NCBI GenBank assembly: GCA_022711335.1
Contig: JAKLFF010000004.1
Coordinates: 10,592 to 74,591 of the forward strand
DNA length: 64,000 bases
DNA from: Patescibacteria group bacterium
Lineage (GTDB): Bacteria > Patescibacteriota > Minisyncoccia > Moranbacterales > UBA2206
Reading direction: 5' to 3'
Each line of letters starts with the position of its first letter. Position 1 is the first letter of the stretch. A model generated the notes under the pieces. That model was not told the origin of the DNA. It did no database searches and was given only the letters and a program-made list of their open reading frames with translations. Of the stretch, positions 2,343 through 29,043 are shown piece by piece. A program made the translations under genes and the position numbers.

Positions 2343-2941
2343 TATTTTATAATCTTGTCCACTATGCCATATTTTTTAGCTTCTTCCGCGCTCATAAAAT
2401 AATCCCGCTCCGCGTCTTTTTCTATTTTTGAAATCGGCTGCTTCGTATGCTTGGATAAAATTTCATTGAGCCTTTTTTTGACGCTAAGGATATGCTTCGC
2501 ATGGATATCAATATCGGTCGCTTGCCCTTGCGTTCCTCCCATTACCTGATGAATAAGCACTTCGCTGTTAGGAAGAATTATTCTTTTCCCTTCTTTCCCG
2601 GAAGCCAGAAGCAGTGTTGCCGCCGAAGCCGCAAGGCCCACGCAAATTGTAGAAACATCTGCTTTGACATGCTGCATCGTATCATAAATAGCAAGCGCTG
2701 AGGTCACTTGACCGCCTGGAGAATTAATATAGAGCTTGATGTCTTCCTTGCTGCTCTGAGAATCCAGAAAAAGAAGCTGGGCGATAATACTGTTGGCGGA
2801 AATATCATCAACGGGACCGCCCAAAAAAATTATTCTCTCCTTGAGAAGCCTTGAATAAATATCGTAAGCCCGCTCGCCATAGCTGGTCTTTTCTATCACT
2901 GTGGGTATCAGATATTGATTTATAATATTATTTTTATTCAT
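2342..2941 (-). CDS. clpP: ATP-dependent Clp protease proteolytic subunit
   Basis: [24 protein letters not shown]...; the track ORF begins at a TTG (2977); the ATG giving [15 protein letters not shown] (2939-2941) is the more plausible start. Confidence 0.9.
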
Positions 2942-3031
2942 AATTTCGAATTTAAAACGATTTTTAATTTTTGGCAACTTGAATTTTAATATTGTTTAGA
3001 ATCTAAGATTTAGCACTTAGAATTTATTAAA

Positions 3032-4327
3032 TTAAAGCCTCTCCAGGAACTCAAATACTTTTTCATTCTCAAGAGTTCCCTTGCAATAGCTATACAATCT
3101 TTCCATATCCAAATTCTTCTCCATATTCCTAACATCTTTATAATACTTGAGGGTTTTGTTGATTTCTTCTTCTATTTCTTTTGTATCAGCTTTTATGTCT
3201 TCGTCTTTGGCGATTTGCCCAAGCGCCAGGGCGGAAATTATTCTTTTTTCCGCTTGAGGTTTCCAATCAGTTTTGAGATCCTCCTTGCTTTTTTTAATAT
3301 TAGCAAGATACTGGTCTATTGTCATTCCCATCGGGCTAATTTGATGTTCAAATTCATGAAGCATTTTTTCCGTTTCCTCCTTGACGAGAATTTCAGGAAG
3401 ATCCGTTTTTGAATTTTGGACGATACTGTCTAAAAATTCAGTTCTTCTGTTTTCTTTCATTTTATGCTCTTTCTCGTGTTCAAGCCCTTCTTTCAGGCTT
3501 TTTCGAAGCATTTCAAGATTTTCAAATTTGCCAAGGGATTTTGCAAAATCATTATTGATTTCCGGGGTCTGCCTTTCCTGAACTAAATTCATCTTGACCT
3601 TAAATGTAGCCGCTTTTCCAGCCAAATCTTTCTTGTGATAATCAGCCGGAAATGACAATTCGAATTCCTTTTCTTCCCCCTCTTTCATTCCGATTATATT
3701 TTCTTCAAATCCGGGAATAAAAACACCTTTTCCAATTATCAGCGGATGTTTCTCGCTCTTTCCATTTTCAATCGGCGCCCCGCCGACAGACACTTCAAAA
3801 TCAATTTCCACGCTGTCTCCTTTTTTCGCTTCGCGTCTGACTGTTACCAGCTTCACCCGGCTCGCGGCCAGTTTTTCAACTTCAAGATCAACATCCTTTT
3901 CATCAACCTGGCTTTCTTTTTTAGAAAATTCCTCGTTGATTTTTTTTATCTCTTTTTTGTAGGCTGGCTCTATTTTTATTTCCGGCATAATTGATACCGT
4001 TGCCTTATATCTAAGATCTTTTCCCTCTTCCATTTCCACTATTTCCACTTTAGGGCTGCCGATGACTTCCAATTTTTTTTTCTCCGCCAGCTGGCGGACA
4101 TATTCAACATAGCTCTTTCTGACCGCTTTTTCTGAAGCCTCATTGAGAATGGCTGCTTTTCCTATTTTTTGCTCTACGATATTTCTCGGCGCTTTTCCAG
4201 GACGAAAACCAGGAATTTTTATCTCTCCTGATAATTCTTCCGCCGCCTGGTCCAGATATTTTTTCCAATCCTCCCAAGACACCGCCAATTCAAATTCAAT
4301 TTGAGATTTAGGTAGTTTTTTGATCAT
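3032..4327 (-). CDS. tig: Trigger factor
   Basis: 431 aa; N-terminal ...GFRPGKAPRNIVEQK... ribosome-binding signature; the classic tig-clpP adjacency. Confidence 0.9.
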   Translation of the reverse strand: MIKKLPKSQIEFELAVSWEDWKKYLDQAAEELSGEIKIPGFRPGKAPRNIVEQKIGKAAILNEASEKAVRKSYVEYVRQLAEKKKLEVIGSPKVEIVEMEEGKDLRYKATVSIMPEIKIEPAYKKEIKKINEEFSKKESQVDEKDVDLEVEKLAASRVKLVTVRREAKKGDSVEIDFEVSVGGAPIENGKSEKHPLIIGKGVFIPGFEENIIGMKEGEEKEFELSFPADYHKKDLAGKAATFKVKMNLVQERQTPEINNDFAKSLGKFENLEMLRKSLKEGLEHEKEHKMKENRRTEFLDSIVQNSKTDLPEILVKEETEKMLHEFEHQISPMGMTIDQYLANIKKSKEDLKTDWKPQAEKRIISALALGQIAKDEDIKADTKEIEEEINKTLKYYKDVRNMEKNLDMERLYSYCKGTLENEKVFEFLERL

Positions 4328-24291: not shown

Positions 24292-25233
24292 TTAATTCTT
24301 ATTTAACAGGGTCAAGCAATCAATAATTTCAGAAAAATCTTCCGGAAGCTCCGCTGAAAAGCTATACTTCTTGCCGAATAAGCTAAGCTCTATGCTCCTT
24401 GCATGGAGCATTTGTCTTTTAGCAAATAATCCGTCCTTGCTATTCTTTAGCTTATATATTTTATCGCCTATTATAGGATGGCCGATAGATTTCATATGTA
24501 CTCGAATTTGATGCATTCGTCCCGTTTTCGGACTGGCTTCAATCAGAGAATATTTTTTATATTTTTTTATTACTCCATACTCGGTCAGAGCCAGCCTTAT
24601 TTTTGTCCTGGTTTTTCTTCCGGCAATTATCTGTTTTTTATAGTTGCTTGAACGCGCAATTGATTTTTCAATAGTTCCTTTGCTATTTTCCATTTTTCCA
24701 TAAACTATGGCCAGATATTTTTTTTCAACTTCCCTGTTTTTAAACTTTTTTTTAAGTTCCTCAAAAGTCTTTTGATTTCTGGCAACAATCATGACTCCGC
24801 TCGTATCCTTGTCTAGCCTATGGACAATCCCGGGACGAATTTCGGGTTCATCGCCAACAGATTTAATTCCAGGAAATTCATAAACCAACCAGTTAGCCAG
24901 GGTGTTAGTTTCACTTAATTTTGAAGGATGGACTGAAATCCCAGCTGGCTTATTGATAGCAATAATATTTTTATCCTGATATATGATTTCAAATTTTATA
25001 TTTTTATTGGGAACTAGCTTTCCTGATTCTTTTTCAAAATTAACTTCTATTTCATCGTTTTCTTTCAAAATATAGCTTGGTTTTATTTTTTTATTATTGG
25101 TTAAAACATTGCCATCTTTTATCTTCCTGGTTATCTCTCCACGGCTGATTTTTTCATTAAAAAAAACTTCCTCTTTGAGGAATTTATCAATTCTTTTTCC
25201 TGAACTATTTTTTTCTACAGTTATATTTTTCAT
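24292..25233 (-). CDS. RluA-family pseudouridine synthase with an N-terminal S4 domain (RluD-like)
   Basis: HRLDKDTSGVMIVARN; the true start is the ATG (MKNITVEK...) at 25231-25233; the longer track ORF runs into two tRNA genes. Confidence 0.8.
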   Translation of the reverse strand: MKNITVEKNSSGKRIDKFLKEEVFFNEKISRGEITRKIKDGNVLTNNKKIKPSYILKENDEIEVNFEKESGKLVPNKNIKFEIIYQDKNIIAINKPAGISVHPSKLSETNTLANWLVYEFPGIKSVGDEPEIRPGIVHRLDKDTSGVMIVARNQKTFEELKKKFKNREVEKKYLAIVYGKMENSKGTIEKSIARSSNYKKQIIAGRKTRTKIRLALTEYGVIKKYKKYSLIEASPKTGRMHQIRVHMKSIGHPIIGDKIYKLKNSKDGLFAKRQMLHARSIELSLFGKKYSFSAELPEDFSEIIDCLTLLNKN

Positions 25234-25235
25234 CG

Positions 25236-25319
25236 TGCCCAGAAGAGGACTCGAACCTCCAATCCCTTGCGGGAACCAGTTCCTAAGACTGGCGCGTATA
25301 CCAATTCCGCCATCTGGGC
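25236..25319 (-). tRNA. tRNA-Leu(TAG)
   Basis: 84 nt; long variable arm; anticodon loop CUUAGGA. Confidence 0.75.
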
Positions 25320-25331
25320 ATTTGCAAAGCG

Positions 25332-25415
25332 TGCCTTGAGCGAGACTCGAACTCGCAATCCCTTGCGGGAACATGCTCCTGAAGCATGCGCGTATACCAA
25401 TTCCGCCACCAAGGC
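25332..25415 (-). tRNA. tRNA-Leu(CAG)
   Basis: 84 nt; long variable arm; anticodon loop UUCAGGA. Confidence 0.75.
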
Positions 25416-25419
25416 AATG

Positions 25420-25674
25420 CTACATTTTTTCTTTTAGAATTTCCCTGATTTTTTTTCTTCCAGCACAGCTTTTGTAATATCTTTCCATATATCTAGCCTC
25501 TGCTAGCAAATTGTAATTTTCCTGATAAATTAATTCCATCGGCAATCTATTTTTTGTACTTTCTACCTTGCCTTTTTCATGTTGTGCGAGTCTTCTTTTT
25601 AAATCATCAGTAGAACCAATGTAAGTTTTTCCATCTTTTAAGCTTTTTAAAATATATAGATATCCTGTTATCAT
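25420..25674 (-). CDS. Small GIY-YIG (URI-domain, UPF0213/YhbQ-like) nuclease family protein
   Basis: YLYILKSLKDGKTYIGSTDDLKRRLAQHEKG... Confidence 0.7.
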   Translation of the reverse strand: MITGYLYILKSLKDGKTYIGSTDDLKRRLAQHEKGKVESTKNRLPMELIYQENYNLLAEARYMERYYKSCAGRKKIREILKEKM

Positions 25675-26123: not shown

Positions 26124-26990
26124 TTAATCATTTAGATTATTCTTATATAATCTCTTTGCAGTCTCGACTGTATTTTTCATCAGCATCGCCACCGTCATCG
26201 GCCCAACGCCTCCTGGAACCGGAGTGATCGCGCTGGCAATTTCTTTCACGTTTTCAAAGTCCGCGTCTCCAACTAATTTTCCATTCGATAATCTATTCAT
26301 CCCGACGTCCACAACCACAACTCCCTTTTTTATCATGTCTTTTTTAATCAGTCCAGCTTTGCCGACCGCAGTAACTAAAATATCCGCTCTTTTTGTAATT
26401 TCTCCTAAATTTTCTGTTTTTATATGAGCCACTATGACTGTCGCGTTCTCTTCGAGAAACATCATCGCCATCGGCTTTCCGACAATATTGCTCTTTCCCG
26501 CAACCACGCATTCCCTTCCTGAAATTTCGATATTATTTCTTTTTAATATTTCCATAATTCCTGCTGGAGTGCACGGTAATAATTTTCCAATACCGATAGA
26601 CAGTTTTCCAACATTTTCCGGGTGAAAACAATCCACGTCTTTCTTAGGATCAATTGATTCAATAATTTTTCCTTCATCAATATGTTTTGGGAGAGGCAGC
26701 TGCACCAGAATTCCATGAGTTTTTTCATCCGCATTTAGTTTTTGAATCAGTTTCAATAATTCTTCTTCCGTTGTACATTCCGGCATCTCAAAAACCTGGG
26801 AATTAATTTCCATTTCCTCGCAAGCTTTCTTTTTGTTATCTACATAAATCTTTGAAGCCGGATCATCGCCAACGAGTATTACAACCAAGCCCGGAGCTAT
26901 TCCGGTTTTTTTAAGCTGCGCTATTTCTATTTTCAGCTCTTCCTTGATTTCAGAGGCTAATTTTTTCCCGTCTAATATTTTTGCGCTCAT
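26124..26990 (-). CDS. folD: Bifunctional methylene-THF dehydrogenase/cyclohydrolase
   Basis: ...GLVVILVGDDPASKIYV..., ...HGILVQLPLP... Confidence 0.85.
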   Translation of the reverse strand: MSAKILDGKKLASEIKEELKIEIAQLKKTGIAPGLVVILVGDDPASKIYVDNKKKACEEMEINSQVFEMPECTTEEELLKLIQKLNADEKTHGILVQLPLPKHIDEGKIIESIDPKKDVDCFHPENVGKLSIGIGKLLPCTPAGIMEILKRNNIEISGRECVVAGKSNIVGKPMAMMFLEENATVIVAHIKTENLGEITKRADILVTAVGKAGLIKKDMIKKGVVVVDVGMNRLSNGKLVGDADFENVKEIASAITPVPGGVGPMTVAMLMKNTVETAKRLYKNNLND

Positions 26991-27041
26991 AATCCTATGC
27001 TAACTTTAATTCTATCTTTTGTCTAGAAAAAAACCTCATTC

Positions 27042-27116
27042 GTCCCGCTTCGCGGAACAACTTCTCCTTAGTAAAGGAGAAGGTTAAACTTTTCCCTCTC
27101 CTTGGCAAGGAGAGGG
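27042..27116. repeat. GC-rich multi-hairpin element (same family as 26067..26118)
   Basis: CCGC-TTC-GCGG; CTTCTCCTT-AGTAA-AGGAGAAG; CCCTCTCCTT-GGC-AAGGAGAGGG. Confidence 0.5.
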
Positions 27117-27135
27117 TAGGGTGAGGTTACAGCAT

Positions 27136-27164
27136 TTGACAGATTTCGATAGGCATGCTATATA
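27136..27164 (+). promoter_or_regulatory. Consensus sigma70-type promoter driving the GC-rich noncoding region
   Basis: TTGACA, 17-bp spacer, TATATA. Confidence 0.55.
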
Positions 27165-27169
27165 AAATA

Positions 27170-27702
27170 CACATTTAAAAAAGAGGCGACGGTGTCCGGC
27201 GGCGTTTCAGCGCCAAAGGAAGAATTGGAAAAACCCAATCGCAAGGAGAGGAGAAATGGGCGTTATTGTGTCTTGTTCCAAATGGAAAATTTATAATAAT
27301 ACAGTCACCGTCCCGGCCACCTGCAACCGCAACACCGGCTGAGCGACCCGTGGGCGCCCGCCAGACTGACGATGTCTGGCTAGTCAGCCCTGGGAAATGG
27401 CCGTAGTGTAACCGCCGTCCGCGCCCCCTCCGAGCAAGCCTCGGACCAGTCCACAAGGGACATTGGGCGCGGCCGGCACACACAGCATTTGCCCGCCATC
27501 GTCTGCGCGGGCAGAAAGGACAAATATGCGCCGCATACCCTTTTCAGGGTTGAGAACCAACGTCTCAGCGACGCAACCGGATGTCTGCAATCCAGACTCT
27601 AGTCCCGTGAATAGGCCCCGCTCCACGGAATTTACGCCACTGGAGCCGCCACGAATTTAGGACGTATTAGGGACGCAGTCTGATTGCAGACGTCACCCAG
27701 CA
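27170..27702 (+). ncRNA. Candidate structured noncoding RNA of unknown class (about 450-570 nt, about 60% GC)
   Basis: No ORF over 102 aa in any frame; many local hairpins; bracketed by a consensus promoter and a strong intrinsic terminator; GC content far above the flanking DNA. Confidence 0.45.
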
Positions 27703-27741
27703 GAGCCCAAGAGTTCTCAACTCTCGGGCTCATTTTTTTTA
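27703..27741 (+). terminator. Intrinsic terminator
   Basis: GAGCCCAAGAG...CTCTCGGGCTC hairpin followed by a T8 run. Confidence 0.75.
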
Positions 27742-27750
27742 TCAAAAAAC

Positions 27751-27780
27751 TTGCTAATTTGTAATAATTAGTGATATAAT
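27751..27780 (+). promoter_or_regulatory. Promoter of rarA
   Basis: TTGCTA, 18-bp spacer, TATAAT. Confidence 0.5.
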
Positions 27781-27796
27781 ATCACTATCTTTATGT

Positions 27797-27846
27797 CATT
27801 CCCGCGAAAGCCTGCCTGTCCGGTAGGCAGGCAGGAATCTAGTTAT
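27797..27846 (+). promoter_or_regulatory. Hairpin-A-like leader element (partial copy of the two-hairpin motif, with an inserted sub-hairpin)
   Basis: GTCATTCCCGCGAAAGC[CTGCCTGTCCGGTAGGCAGGCAG]GAATCTAG directly upstream of the rarA ATG. Confidence 0.4.
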
Positions 27847-29043
27847 ATGAATACTTCCCCTCTCGCCGATCGAATCCGCCCCCAGACTCTCAATGAATTC
27901 TTCGGCCAGAAAAAACTAATCAGCAAAAATTCCTATCTCCAAAACGCGATTGAAAATGACCGCGTACCTTCAATGATTTTTTGGGGTCCGCCCGGATCGG
28001 GAAAAACAACTCTTGCCCAAATTATCGCCAACCTTACGAAGTCCGACTTCATAAAACTTTCCGCGGTTTCATCCGGCAAAAAACAACTGGTAGAAATTGT
28101 TGAAAAAGCGAAAGAAAATATAAAAATTAAAAAGAAAACTATTCTTTTTATCGATGAAATTCATCGTTGGAACAAAGCTCAGCAGGACGCTCTTCTTCCC
28201 TACGTTGAAAACGGAACTATCATTCTCATCGGCGCCACCACTGAAAATCCCAGTTTTGAAGTCATTGGCGCTCTCATTTCTCGCGCTCGGGTTTTTGTTT
28301 TGGAAAAATTGGAAAAAGAAGATATTGAAAAAATCTTAAAGCGTGCAATTAGCATTGTAGGGAACGCACATGTGCGTTCCGAAAAAAAAATAAAAATCTC
28401 CGAAGACACTATTAGGTTGATTTCCAATCTTTCCAATGGCGATGCCCGCATGGCGCTAAACACCCTGGAAGCTTTGATCAACGCAAACAAAAATATAACT
28501 GAAAAACTCGTCAAAGAAATTCTCCAAAAAACCCATCTGCTTTATGATAAAACCGGCGAAGAGCATTATAATATTATTTCCGCCCTCCACAAATCCATGC
28601 GCGGAGGCGATGCCAATGCCGCTCTCTATTGGCTCGCTCGCATGATTGAAGGTGGCGAAGATCCGCTCTACATTGCCCGAAGGTTAGTTCGATTCGCTTC
28701 CGAAGACATTGGCCTTGCCAATAACACTGCCTTAATTTTAGCCAATGCTGTTTTTGATGCTTGTCACAAGCTGGGTTACCCAGAATGCAATGTCCATCTG
28801 GCTCAATGCGTCATTTATCTTTCTAAATCCAAAAAGGACGTAACCGCCTACCTGGCTTATGAAAAAGCCAAGAAAGATGTGACTGATTTTGGCAATCTTC
28901 CTATCCCCTTCCACATCAGGAACGCTCCGACAAAACTGATGAAAGAATTGGGATATGGAAAAAATTACAAATACACGCCTCTTGAAGACAGCTCAGATCA
29001 AACTTACCTTCCGAATAAACTGAAAAACAAAAAATACATATAA
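27847..29043 (+). CDS. rarA: Replication-associated recombination protein A (AAA+ ATPase)
   Basis: GPPGSGKTTLAQIIA Walker A and MgsA-type C-terminal domain; the track ORF start at 27793 is created by an ATG inside the repeat. Confidence 0.85.
   Translation: MNTSPLADRIRPQTLNEFFGQKKLISKNSYLQNAIENDRVPSMIFWGPPGSGKTTLAQIIANLTKSDFIKLSAVSSGKKQLVEIVEKAKENIKIKKKTILFIDEIHRWNKAQQDALLPYVENGTIILIGATTENPSFEVIGALISRARVFVLEKLEKEDIEKILKRAISIVGNAHVRSEKKIKISEDTIRLISNLSNGDARMALNTLEALINANKNITEKLVKEILQKTHLLYDKTGEEHYNIISALHKSMRGGDANAALYWLARMIEGGEDPLYIARRLVRFASEDIGLANNTALILANAVFDACHKLGYPECNVHLAQCVIYLSKSKKDVTAYLAYEKAKKDVTDFGNLPIPFHIRNAPTKLMKELGYGKNYKYTPLEDSSDQTYLPNKLKNKKYI

Follow-up and report, generated by a model that had tools for sequence, protein, structure and literature searches.

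The gap between folD and rarA in a Moranbacteria (CPR) genome, situated in the 64,000-nt stretch of DNA analysed here (the window), holds a self-contained transcript candidate of about 570 nt, whose features are collected in the table. In a scan with 200-nt segments, 27241-27660 was the sole stretch of the 64 kb lying at least 17 points above the mean GC, with a peak of up to 67.5% compared with 39.6% for the window as a whole. An earlier note on this DNA had placed about 60% GC at roughly 27300-27700, and values of 67%, 62% and 56% in 27300-27499, 27400-27599 and 27500-27699, respectively, bear this out; the background that it put at about 35% is the 39.6% just given. Its statement that no frame exceeds 102 codons agrees with the longest ORF over the region, which has 102 aa and lies on the minus strand (27175-27483). 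The TTGACA-N17-TATATA promoter described there can be read directly from the sequence, and all seven related loci (the window, L083, L088, L214, L446, L087 and L093) preserve its -35, spacing, TG and -10 amid diverging flanks; the consensus promoter scanner omitted 27136-27164 because this -10 ends in A. The start of transcription is predicted near 27171. A second box, TATAAT, suspected at about 27286, does exist at 27292-27297, but it is conserved in none of the homologues and falls inside the small ORF described below, and a second internal promoter at 27292 was rejected for its lack of conservation. At the other end, the structure described as a textbook intrinsic terminator at 27703..27741 is confirmed by a stem of 13 positions and a run of eight T; one position of the stem is an A.C mismatch in the window and a G-C pair in L083, and on the minus strand, as read from the sequence, no T run follows the stem. 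The promoter of rarA lies directly after this terminator, at 27751-27780, the order that had been proposed, and it is conserved both in loci with the element and in loci without it.

Table. Positions of the predicted features of the element in the window, with RNA pairing partners where applicable
Feature	Position	Strand	Details
Promoter	27136..27164	+	-35 TTGACA 27136-41; 17-nt spacer; extended -10 TG 27156-57; -10 TATATA 27159-64
5' leader	27171..27255	+	Shine-Dalgarno (SD) AAGGAG 27243-48, 7 nt before ATG
Small ORF (sORF1)	27256..27342	+	28 codons and TGA stop; SD site upstream; product MGVIVSCSKWKIYNNTVTVPATCNRNTG
Helix C domain	27336..27403	+	closing helix CGGCUG 27336-41 with UGGCCG 27398-403; holds the sORF1 stop codon
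Helix C inner hairpin	27360-66 with 27374-80	+	GCCAGAC with GUCUGGC; conserved loop CUGACGA
Helix D domain	27414..27477	+	GCCG-U-CCGCGCCC 27414-26 with GGGCGCGG-C-CGGC 27465-77; encloses hairpins 27429-45 and 27449-61
Hairpin E	27490..27513	+	UGCCCGC 27490-96 with GCGGGCA 27507-13
Second ribosome-binding site	27513..27528	+	AGAAAGGA 27513-20 and AUG 27526-28; single-stranded linker
Helix A	27527..27575	+	27527-34 with 27568-75; encloses small hairpins 27537-50 and 27551-67
Hairpin B (long, irregular)	27580..27694	+	GAUGUCUGCAAUC 27580-92 with GAUUGCAGACGUC 27682-94
Hairpin B inner pairings			in order: AGAC/GUCU, GUCCC/GGGAC, GGC/GCC, GCUCCA/UGGAGC
C-rich single strand	27694..27698	+	CACCC, between hairpin B and terminator; CACC[CU] kept there in 5/5 homologues
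Intrinsic terminator	27703..27740	+	stem 27703-15 with 27719-31; loop CUC; eight T at 27733-40

Four more distinct homologues (L083, L088, L214 and L446) occupy the same folD-rarA gap in related Moranbacteria, making five with the window; together with L087 and L093, in which the promoter and the small ORF are kept, they form the seven related loci. Between the window and L083 the RNA core is 94-95% identical, compared with 81-83% for the DNA of folD and rarA, whereas in the farther homologues the RNA identity of 52-65% falls below the 74-80% of the flanking genes. The leader, which in the window carries a GC hairpin insert found only there (approximately 27186-27216), is only 43-57% identical among the homologues, each of which keeps a GGAGG- or AGGAG-type site before the ATG.

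The claim that this transcript has no coding capacity is contradicted by sORF1, which is led by its SD site and kept, with synonymous codon changes, in 7/7 related loci; the second ribosome-binding site and AUG conserved inside the RNA also speak against it. An SD+ATG ORF of 25-37 codons occurs at the equivalent place in all seven loci, and the chance of finding one, estimated from composition-matched random sequence, is 0.03-0.10 per locus; the product over the seven, about 1e-9, is overstated because the loci are related. Arginine is codon 3 in five of the six relatives (CGC, CGC, CGT, CGA and CGA), the window having Val, and in L087 its place is codon 2 or codon 3, according to which start is taken, while the Thr codons vary synonymously among ACT, ACA and ACC. 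The peptide ends in C-[ST]-x-G-stop in four homologues and in CNRNTG in the window, its conservation being confined to its two ends. The ORF is present too in L087 and L093, whose RNA body differs. The comparative evidence that this small ORF inside the RNA would be translated may be regarded as strong. The encoded peptides are rich in Thr and Asn, and they are neither amphipathic nor haemolysin-like; Pfam searched with the ORFs of the region, and Pfam and NCBIfam searched with the micropeptides, returned nothing meaningful. A RiPP precursor was rejected since no modifying enzymes were called nearby, a type I toxin since the peptide is not hydrophobic enough, and a ribosomal protein L36-like peptide since the Cys/His pattern is unsuitable.

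Beyond the small ORF, the predicted fold strings together the local domains C, D, E, A and B, with the 3' third forming a self-closed hairpin. The minimum free energy on the plus strand is -228.6 kcal/mol, compared with -184.5 +/- 6.3 for shuffles (z = -7.05), and the minus strand gives z = -5.74. Comparison with related genomes, recommended in the earlier note as a covariation check, showed that in hairpin B and the terminator 14 of the 42 pairs carry changes on both sides, with 93.9% paired, compared with 0-3 double-changed pairs in slid controls, and the observed value was reached in 0/500 shuffles; the terminator helix (helix 7) contributes compensatory change in 3 pairs. In the 5' domain the support is modest, with 6 doubly changed pairs where slid controls give 0-5, and helices D and E hardly vary; with only five distinct sequences, these covariation statistics are thin. 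Helix C is 100% paired in the five sequences, including one G-C to A-U change, its stop codon switches between UGA and UAG together with the pairing partner, and its inner hairpin shows three compensatory changes between the window and L083, in a core that is otherwise about 95% identical. The pairing of helix D is kept in all five, with one G-C to A-U change in L214, and its near-invariant sequence leaves little room for covariation; hairpin E is likewise conserved in 5/5 and mostly unvaried, apart from one G.U and one A.C. In the helix A region, the hairpin UGAGA/UCUCA becomes GGGU/ACCC in L088; the region itself differs in L214 and is missing from L446. Hairpin B, whose internal loops AUAGGCCC and CCGCCA..AAAUU are conserved in sequence, is found in the window, L083, L088 and L214 and is missing from L446, so the best-supported part of the fold is dispensable. 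The U.G and G.U pairs of the helix C domain become mismatches if read on the minus strand, and such G-U pairs identify the plus strand as the RNA strand; a minus-strand RNA was rejected on the grounds that many G.U pairs turn into mismatches and that the stem has no T run there. A protein gene or pseudogene was also rejected, given indels of 1, 2 and 11 nt, which are not multiples of three, and no ORF shared across the homologues over the RNA region. The covariation in the 3' part, the near-invariant D/E core and the non-triplet indels argue that the RNA part would have a function of its own.

Within this domain, a purine-rich SD-like block and an AUG, separated by 5-7 nt, are kept in 5/5 homologues; the block reads GAGGAGG in L088, and in L446 both are kept despite a replaced spacer and replaced flanks. 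The AUG lies in the 5' strand of helix A. The ORF that it opens is not conserved, the translated sequences having 44, 44, 13, 18 and 8 codons in the five homologues (44 in the window).

Searches of Rfam 15 gave no match in the element; at E up to 10, in stretches of 576-901 nt from the window, L214 and L088, no family emerged, the only matches being unrelated, at chance level and different from one homologue to another. The earlier note had advised a scan with the full library, including RNaseP_bact_a/b, tmRNA and OLE/GOLLD/ROOL, and no family matched within the element; the covariance models of OLE, ROOL, GOLLD, raiA, HEARO, 6S and SRP were all without a match there. In RNase P RNA, the 5' strand of P4 is formed by the block GGAAAGUCC and the 3' strand by ACAGAA...GGCUUA. 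In a motif scan allowing mismatches on both strands of the five homologues, GGAAAGUCC, ACAGAA and GGCUUA were not found at aligned, conserved positions, and the one candidate block, GCAGAAAGGA, turns into GCGAGGAGGU in L088. The predicted folds contain no long-range pairing of the P1/P4 type, within a pseudoknot search that was not exhaustive. ARAGORN found no tmRNA in the window, and neither a T-loop nor a CCACCA end occurs conserved in the five homologues. The type A and B models (RF00010 and RF00011) gave no match at the gathering threshold in the window and stayed unmatched up to E 10 in the stretches from three homologues, a result to be read in the light of CPR RNase P RNAs that can score very low (PMC8172020): Lui et al. 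(2021) found them below Rfam thresholds in 10 of 35 closed CPR genomes. The impression that hallmarks of RNase P RNA, tmRNA and SRP RNA are not evident thus holds at aligned positions in five homologues, and RNase P RNA, tmRNA, SRP RNA and 6S RNA were rejected on the Rfam, ARAGORN and motif results. Of the two identities that had been put forward, an uncharacterised large structured RNA is a fair description of a GC-rich promoter-to-terminator unit with compensatory changes and no Rfam match, whereas a divergent CPR form of a known RNA is opposed by the chain of local domains, the lack of conserved hallmark motifs and the lack of P1/P4-type pairing.

The distribution of the element is narrow. 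At the syntenic locus it is missing in the close relatives L089, L090 and L215-217, and the stretches of their DNA that were examined contain no copy at another place; a search with the short covariance model R1 brought up no further copies and left the RNA body of L087 and L093 unrecognised. Genome contigs searched with RarA yielded 80 loci, in none of which the element lies beside rarA. A scan of metagenome DNA with the pattern CCGCCGTCCGYN{35,65}GGCGYGGCCGG gave 120 loci, none of them homologous and all matched by chance in GC-rich contigs from soil, and it was uninformative because a pattern of GC-only letters is insufficiently specific; three pattern scans of viral contigs likewise gave chance matches only, and phage and plasmid records searched by blastn with the element gave no match. 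The locus itself is variable, with other cargo in relatives and a patchy distribution of the element; the GC island of L003 is an unrelated ORF of 163 aa, and spurious ORFs are predicted over the element in L087 and L214. Taken at this scope, the element is real and apparently new, and it belongs to a narrow group of relatives only.

The best explanation of the locus, put forward tentatively, is an independently transcribed, lineage-restricted bifunctional RNA that joins a micropeptide mRNA to a structured RNA domain and is built like RNAIII; its function as such is inferred from sequence. The 5' third would serve as the message for a conserved micropeptide (25-37 aa; 28 aa in the window), and the 3' two-thirds would fold into a GC-rich multi-helix domain closing with the intrinsic terminator. 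Since the stop codon of sORF1 lies inside the first helix, translation and RNA folding would be physically coupled, ribosomes that end sORF1 having to open the base of the RNA domain. Once folded, with an exposed ribosome-binding site and conserved loops, the domain may act as a regulatory, protein-binding or ribosome-binding module. It is possible, if rather doubtful, that the locus represents an undescribed class of CPR bifunctional RNA in which an ornate domain of about 400 nt, displaying a conserved internal ribosome-binding site, has its closing helix opened when translation of the conserved micropeptide ORF terminates, making it a translation-gated switch or a ribosome-binding RNA, with L087 and L093 as fast-diverging members of the same architecture.

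Only the promoter and sORF1 are common to 7/7 loci, L087 and L093 carry a replaced or unrecognisable RNA body, L446 has lost hairpin B, and in the farther homologues the identity of the RNA drops below that of the flanking genes, all of which would suit a small-protein mRNA with a long structured 3' UTR, where only the micropeptide matters and the GC-rich tail just shields the message from 3' exonucleases. The unrecognised RNA body of L087 and L093 fits such a fast-evolving 3' UTR as well as it fits a functional RNA. This explanation nevertheless seems unlikely, since five homologues with leaders only 43-57% identical show next to no variation in helices D and E and in the SD2-AUG block, hairpin B keeps the sequence of its internal loops, and a stabiliser would not call for 400 nt or for a conserved ribosome-binding site within the RNA. 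The opposite simplification, in which the transcript would work purely as non-coding RNA, perhaps as a scaffold for proteins or an ornate RNA that assembles with itself, and the small ORFs would be incidental or just ribosome loaders, is quite unlikely: it agrees with the strong structure and its covariation, with a GC-rich, long-intergenic signature typical of structured RNAs, and with a second ORF not kept as a protein (8-44 codons), but it does not account for sORF1 in 7/7 loci, two of them with a different RNA body, complete with SD, synonymous Arg/Thr codons and C-terminal motif.

The terminator at 27703-27740, right before a same-strand gene, together with a short ORF, a stop codon in a stem and alternative helices, also recalls the layout of an attenuator, and Thr- and Asn-rich peptides would suit a cis-acting leader in which sORF1 encodes a sensing or arrest peptide and the terminator governs read-through into rarA. 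Such a leader is distinctly improbable, given that rarA has its own conserved promoter past the terminator, that regulatory codon runs are absent, that no upstream sequence pairing with the 5' arm of the terminator was noticed in a non-systematic look at the alignments, and that about 370 nt of conserved structure far exceeds what an attenuator needs. Non-functional DNA, either a GC-rich fragment gained by horizontal transfer or the remains of a gene, is very improbable; the foreign-looking composition and the patchy occupancy of a locus with other cargo in relatives would be in its favour, yet it is largely refuted by the compensatory changes that keep pairing, and in the comparison with L083 conservation of the core exceeds that of the neighbouring genes, promoter, ribosome-binding sites and terminator are all conserved, and the ORFs have no Pfam match and the DNA no similarity to phage or plasmid records. 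Least probable of all is a highly diverged essential RNA (RNase P RNA, tmRNA, SRP or 6S RNA) missed by the Rfam models, for which the size of about 400 nt, the high GC and the sub-threshold RNase P RNAs of 10/35 closed CPR genomes (PMC8172020) can be cited, against the lack of any match to E 10 in three homologues, the negative ARAGORN result, hallmark motifs absent or unaligned, folds without P1/P4-type pairing, an SD-led ORF unsuited to tmRNA, and absence from close relatives, which is impossible for an essential RNA.

The proposed bifunctional RNA has partial counterparts among known systems. RNAIII of Staphylococcus aureus has 514 nt and encodes the 26-aa delta-haemolysin, and SgrS/SgrT and SR1/SR1P are other dual-function sRNAs. 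The likeness to these, above all to RNAIII, is one of architecture and consists in one promoter-to-terminator RNA of about 500-600 nt with a 5' small ORF that has its own ribosome-binding site (25-37 codons here), a large multi-hairpin 3' domain, a terminator shared by both parts and a C-rich single-stranded stretch beside it. The element differs in its CPR host, in a peptide that is not amphipathic or haemolysin-like, in the stop codon within a helix and in the second internal ribosome-binding site, and neither by sequence nor by covariance model does it resemble any Rfam family. With OLE, ROOL, GOLLD, raiA and HEARO it shares an ornate, long and GC-rich fold, set in a genome richer in AT and supported by covariation, and like them it came to light through the signature of a long GC-rich intergenic region (DIMPL, PMC8723152); unlike them, it has a conserved ORF that is predicted to be translated, is very narrowly distributed and has a 3' domain that is modular and in part dispensable. 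The leader attenuators and arrest peptides thrL, TnaC and SpeFL resemble it in the short ORF with conserved N- and C-terminal residues, the stop codon in an RNA structure and the terminator before a same-strand gene, and differ in that here about 370 nt of conserved structure separates the ORF from the terminator, the downstream rarA has its own promoter, regulatory codon runs are absent and no antiterminator was noticed in a non-systematic look. RNase P RNA and tmRNA are similar in size, GC richness and organisation as a stand-alone gene with a terminator, and tmRNA also in carrying a short reading frame in a structured RNA; the element departs from both by lacking their defining motifs and topology and by being missing in close relatives, and from tmRNA by the SD and AUG of its ORF, neither of which is present in the tmRNA tag frame.

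The genomes of CPR/Patescibacteria are tiny and leave little DNA to spare, and to our knowledge almost nothing is known of their regulatory RNAs. A 570-nt unit given over to a micropeptide and a conserved, GC-rich folded RNA amounts to about 0.05% of a genome of roughly 1 Mb and likely does something specific. The addition of the element to RNA family libraries would curb spurious ORF calls over it. If the locus is merely a stabilised small-protein mRNA, its interest would be local; if the coupling between translation and folding proves true, the element would be a compact natural translation-gated RNA and, for uncultured symbiotic bacteria, a concrete entry point to the study of micropeptides and of large structured RNAs.

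The window belongs to Candidatus Moranbacteria (Patescibacteria/CPR), and its RarA is identical to a protein listed at NCBI under 'MAG TPA: Candidatus Moranbacteria bacterium'. Its folD-rarA gap (856 nt) holds a unit in which three 200-nt windows in a row contain 67%, 62% and 56% GC, as the earlier note had described; across the 64 kb scanned, no stretch other than 27241-27660 rises at least 17 points over the 39.6% mean. The promoter and the terminator proposed there are both directly readable in the sequence; a simple scanner overlooks the former because its -10 ends in A, and the latter because its stem has one A.C mismatch. The longest ORF across the region has 102 codons, exactly the ceiling given before, and lies on the minus strand.

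Features of the element and its flanking genes in the window
Feature	Position	Strand	Remark
folD	26124-26990	minus	
Promoter	TTGACA 27136-41, 17-nt spacer, TGcTATATA 27156-64	+	direct reading of sequence
Shine-Dalgarno site AAGGAG	27243-48	+	
Small ORF	ATG 27256 to TGA 27340-42	+	28 codons
Helix C	CGGCUG 27336-41 with UGGCCG 27398-403	+	includes first two stop-codon bases
Helix D	27414-26 with 27465-77	+	almost invariant
Hairpin E	27490-513	+	almost invariant
SD2 (second ribosome-binding site) AGAAAGGA, then AUG	27513-20; AUG 27526-28	+	single-stranded
Helix A	27527-75	+	3' of SD2/AUG
Long hairpin B	27580-694	+	internal loops conserved
Terminator	stem 27703-31, then eight T	+	direct reading of sequence
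rarA	probable start 27847	plus	

A search for similar DNA adjoining rarA in 80 species-representative genomes found none, nor was any found in phages, plasmids or viral contigs, and a metagenome pattern scan returned only GC-rich chance matches, the pattern being too unspecific. Contigs of closer RarA relatives carry a homologous element in the same gap in four further lineages, namely L083-L086 (RarA identity to the window 87%), L214 and L446 (82% each) and L088 (78%). In L087 and L093 (84% and 85%, respectively) the promoter and the small ORF are kept and the RNA body is different; these bodies are not recognised by the covariance model R1 and are also strongly folded (z = -4.7 each). By eye, L087 2380-2960 and L093 2200-2960 show a long-range GC helix and a terminator, as well as a further SD+AUG that opens a short ORF (9 and 13 codons). 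Both loci may share the architecture of the element as members that diverge fast. The locus is variable and the element patchy, because a gene encoding a small secreted repeat protein takes its place in L089 and L215-217, and the gap of L090 measures only 267 nt; the locus is a hotspot for small lineage-specific cargo. The secreted proteins (L089 2644-2883; L215 1520-1804, with L216 and L217 alike) are 79-94 aa long, with a signal peptide and repeats of Arg, Asp and Gly (RGD, DR). In L003, a less closely related Patescibacteria genome, a 163-aa ORF of 66% GC (2912-3403, minus strand) lies 5' of rarA; it is unrelated to the element and has the look of a further foreign insertion here.

The surroundings of the element showed features of their own. 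Between folD and the promoter lie three small GC-rich hairpins (27040-27128), the last with a weak, below-threshold match to whalefall-1 (E = 0.007); akin sequence occurs inside L023 and L033, L083 has other hairpins at the matching position, and their appearance is that of small mobile palindromic repeats. Just upstream of the promoter, L214 (1385-1475) and L446 (1413-1505) carry a C-rich low-complexity tract of CCCCAA- and CCCTAA-like repeats, missing from the window. In the rarA promoter region (27751-27846), a perfect palindrome, AGTGATAT-A-ATATCACT (27770-27786), spans the -10 TATAAT. It resembles an operator, since this 7-3-7 inverted repeat is retained in most relatives read (promoter regions L087 2968-3000, L089 2930-2965, L093 2968-3002, L214 2090-2125 and L446 1982-2017); a single base differs in L214/L446 (TATCATT) and in L215 (GGTGATA). 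In most relatives the rarA mRNA is probably leaderless, because the ATG is only 6 nt past the -10; in the window, some 55 additional nt that include a GC hairpin (27797-27842) are inserted ahead of the MNTSP start at 27847.

The earlier statement that the transcript has no coding capacity does not hold, as an ORF of 25-37 codons led by a Shine-Dalgarno site starts at the same position in all seven loci, kept even though their leaders are only 43-57% identical; the chance of such an ORF in composition-matched random sequences is 0.03-0.10 per locus. Codon 3 is Arg in five of six relatives (CGC, CGC, CGT, CGA, CGA) and Val in the window, and in L087 the choice of start decides whether the Arg is codon 2 or 3; the Thr after it is spelled ACT, ACT, ACA and ACC. 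At the C-terminus, four homologues have C-[ST]-x-G-stop, and the peptide of the window finishes with CNRNTG. These codon-spelling and C-terminal patterns read as signatures of selection on the peptide, and no Pfam or NCBIfam family matched the small-ORF peptides. The gene-caller proteins of 122 aa (L087 2443-2811) and 89 aa (L214 1539-1808), on the minus strand opposite the GC-rich RNA, are almost certainly spurious ORFs, a product of GC richness.

The dense local hairpins noticed earlier are borne out by folding, the RNA 27170-27745 reaching -228.6 kcal/mol where shuffled sequences give -184.5 +/- 6.3 (z = -7.05; opposite strand, z = -5.74), and by covariation, a check that the earlier note had proposed. 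In an alignment of four sequences, with slid controls and 500 shuffles, the consensus structure of the 3' part comprises 42 pairs with 93.9% of cells paired; 14 pairs changed on both sides, against 0-3 in the slid controls, and none of the 500 shuffles attained any of five measures. For instance, GAUGUCUGCAAUC/GAUUGCAGACGUC of the window is replaced by GGCGCUUGCAAUU/AAUUGCAAGCGCC in L088 and by GGGUGUCUGUAAU/AUUGCAGACACCC in L214. For helices C, D and E, which make up the 5' domain, five sequences give 90% pairing and 6 double changes versus 0-5 in slid controls, a modest support because D and E scarcely vary; in the inner hairpin of the first domain, window and L083 differ by three compensatory changes (window CCAGAC/GUCUGG, L083 CCGAG/CUCUG). 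A number of pairs occur as G.U in part of the sequences, and the minus strand would have C.A mismatches there; the T run behind the last stem exists on the plus strand only. These features place the RNA on the plus strand.

Within helix C, the second stop-codon base takes part in a G-C pair in L083 and in an A-U pair in L214; UGA/UAG thus varies jointly with its pairing partner. SD2 and its AUG are kept in the five homologues at a spacing of 5-7 nt; the block is GAGGAGG in L088, and in L446 block and AUG are retained although spacer and flanks are replaced. The ORF that follows is not conserved (44, 44, 13, 18 and 8 codons); the conservation concerns the start site and not a protein. A pyrimidine-rich stretch 5' of hairpin E can, as read from the sequence, pair with SD2 in L214, L446 and L088, and is unable to do so in the window and L083. 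A conserved CACCC lies between hairpin B and the terminator, and the 3' module is dispensable, since L446 is entirely without A and B.

The transcription unit and the small ORF are thus conserved, the RNA domain is under selection for pairing, and the stop codon of the ORF sits within the first helix. A ribosome terminating on the small ORF would have to open the base of the RNA domain; this opening could couple translation to RNA folding, and the folded domain may be a regulatory or binding module. Dual-function sRNAs such as RNAIII are the nearest analogue, with a likeness in build alone and no sequence relationship. The chief alternative is an ordinary micropeptide mRNA whose long tail stabilises it. 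This reading is favoured by L087, L093 and L446, where the RNA body has turned over; the conserved loops and the invariant D/E/SD2 core speak against it. That rarA retains its own promoter everywhere makes an attenuator for this gene unlikely.

A diverged form of RNase P RNA, tmRNA or SRP RNA, an option left by the earlier note, is poorly supported. Rfam 15 at gathering thresholds returned only tRNAs in the whole window, and at E up to 10 the full collection, a search that the note had suggested, gave no match within 27170-27700; the permissive matches in 26950-27850 were chance ones limited to the terminator and an upstream hairpin, and two more homologues gave only unrelated chance matches, differing between them. 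ARAGORN found no tmRNA. This negative was not relied on alone, because RNase P RNAs of CPR bacteria are frequently too diverged for Rfam thresholds (Lui et al., PMC8172020); a motif scan of five homologues found GGAAAGUCC, ACAGAA, GGCUUA, the T-loop, the CCACCA end and the SRP motif missing or unaligned, in line with the first reading by eye. Moreover, the consensus fold is a string of local domains, unlike RNase P RNA with its long-range P1/P4 pairing, and the element is not an essential RNA because close relatives are without it. The two adjacent tRNA-Leu genes of the window (25235-25415) are overlapped by the mechanically called ORF 24292-25374, which encodes a pseudouridine synthase and must in truth start further downstream; they directly adjoin an 84-aa GIY-YIG-domain ORF (25420-25674).

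Junk DNA is likewise poorly supported, and a protein gene or pseudogene is ruled out by the indels between the window and L083 (1, 2, 3 and 11 nt) and by the alignment comparison, in which no reading frame across the RNA region is common to the homologues; RNA core identity between these two is 94-95%, against 81-83% for folD and rarA DNA. In summary, the element is solid as such, with a narrow distribution and a mechanism that we only infer; it is real, had not been filed before, is restricted to one lineage and includes a conserved micro-ORF, an RNA element new as a family and of a general kind already known.
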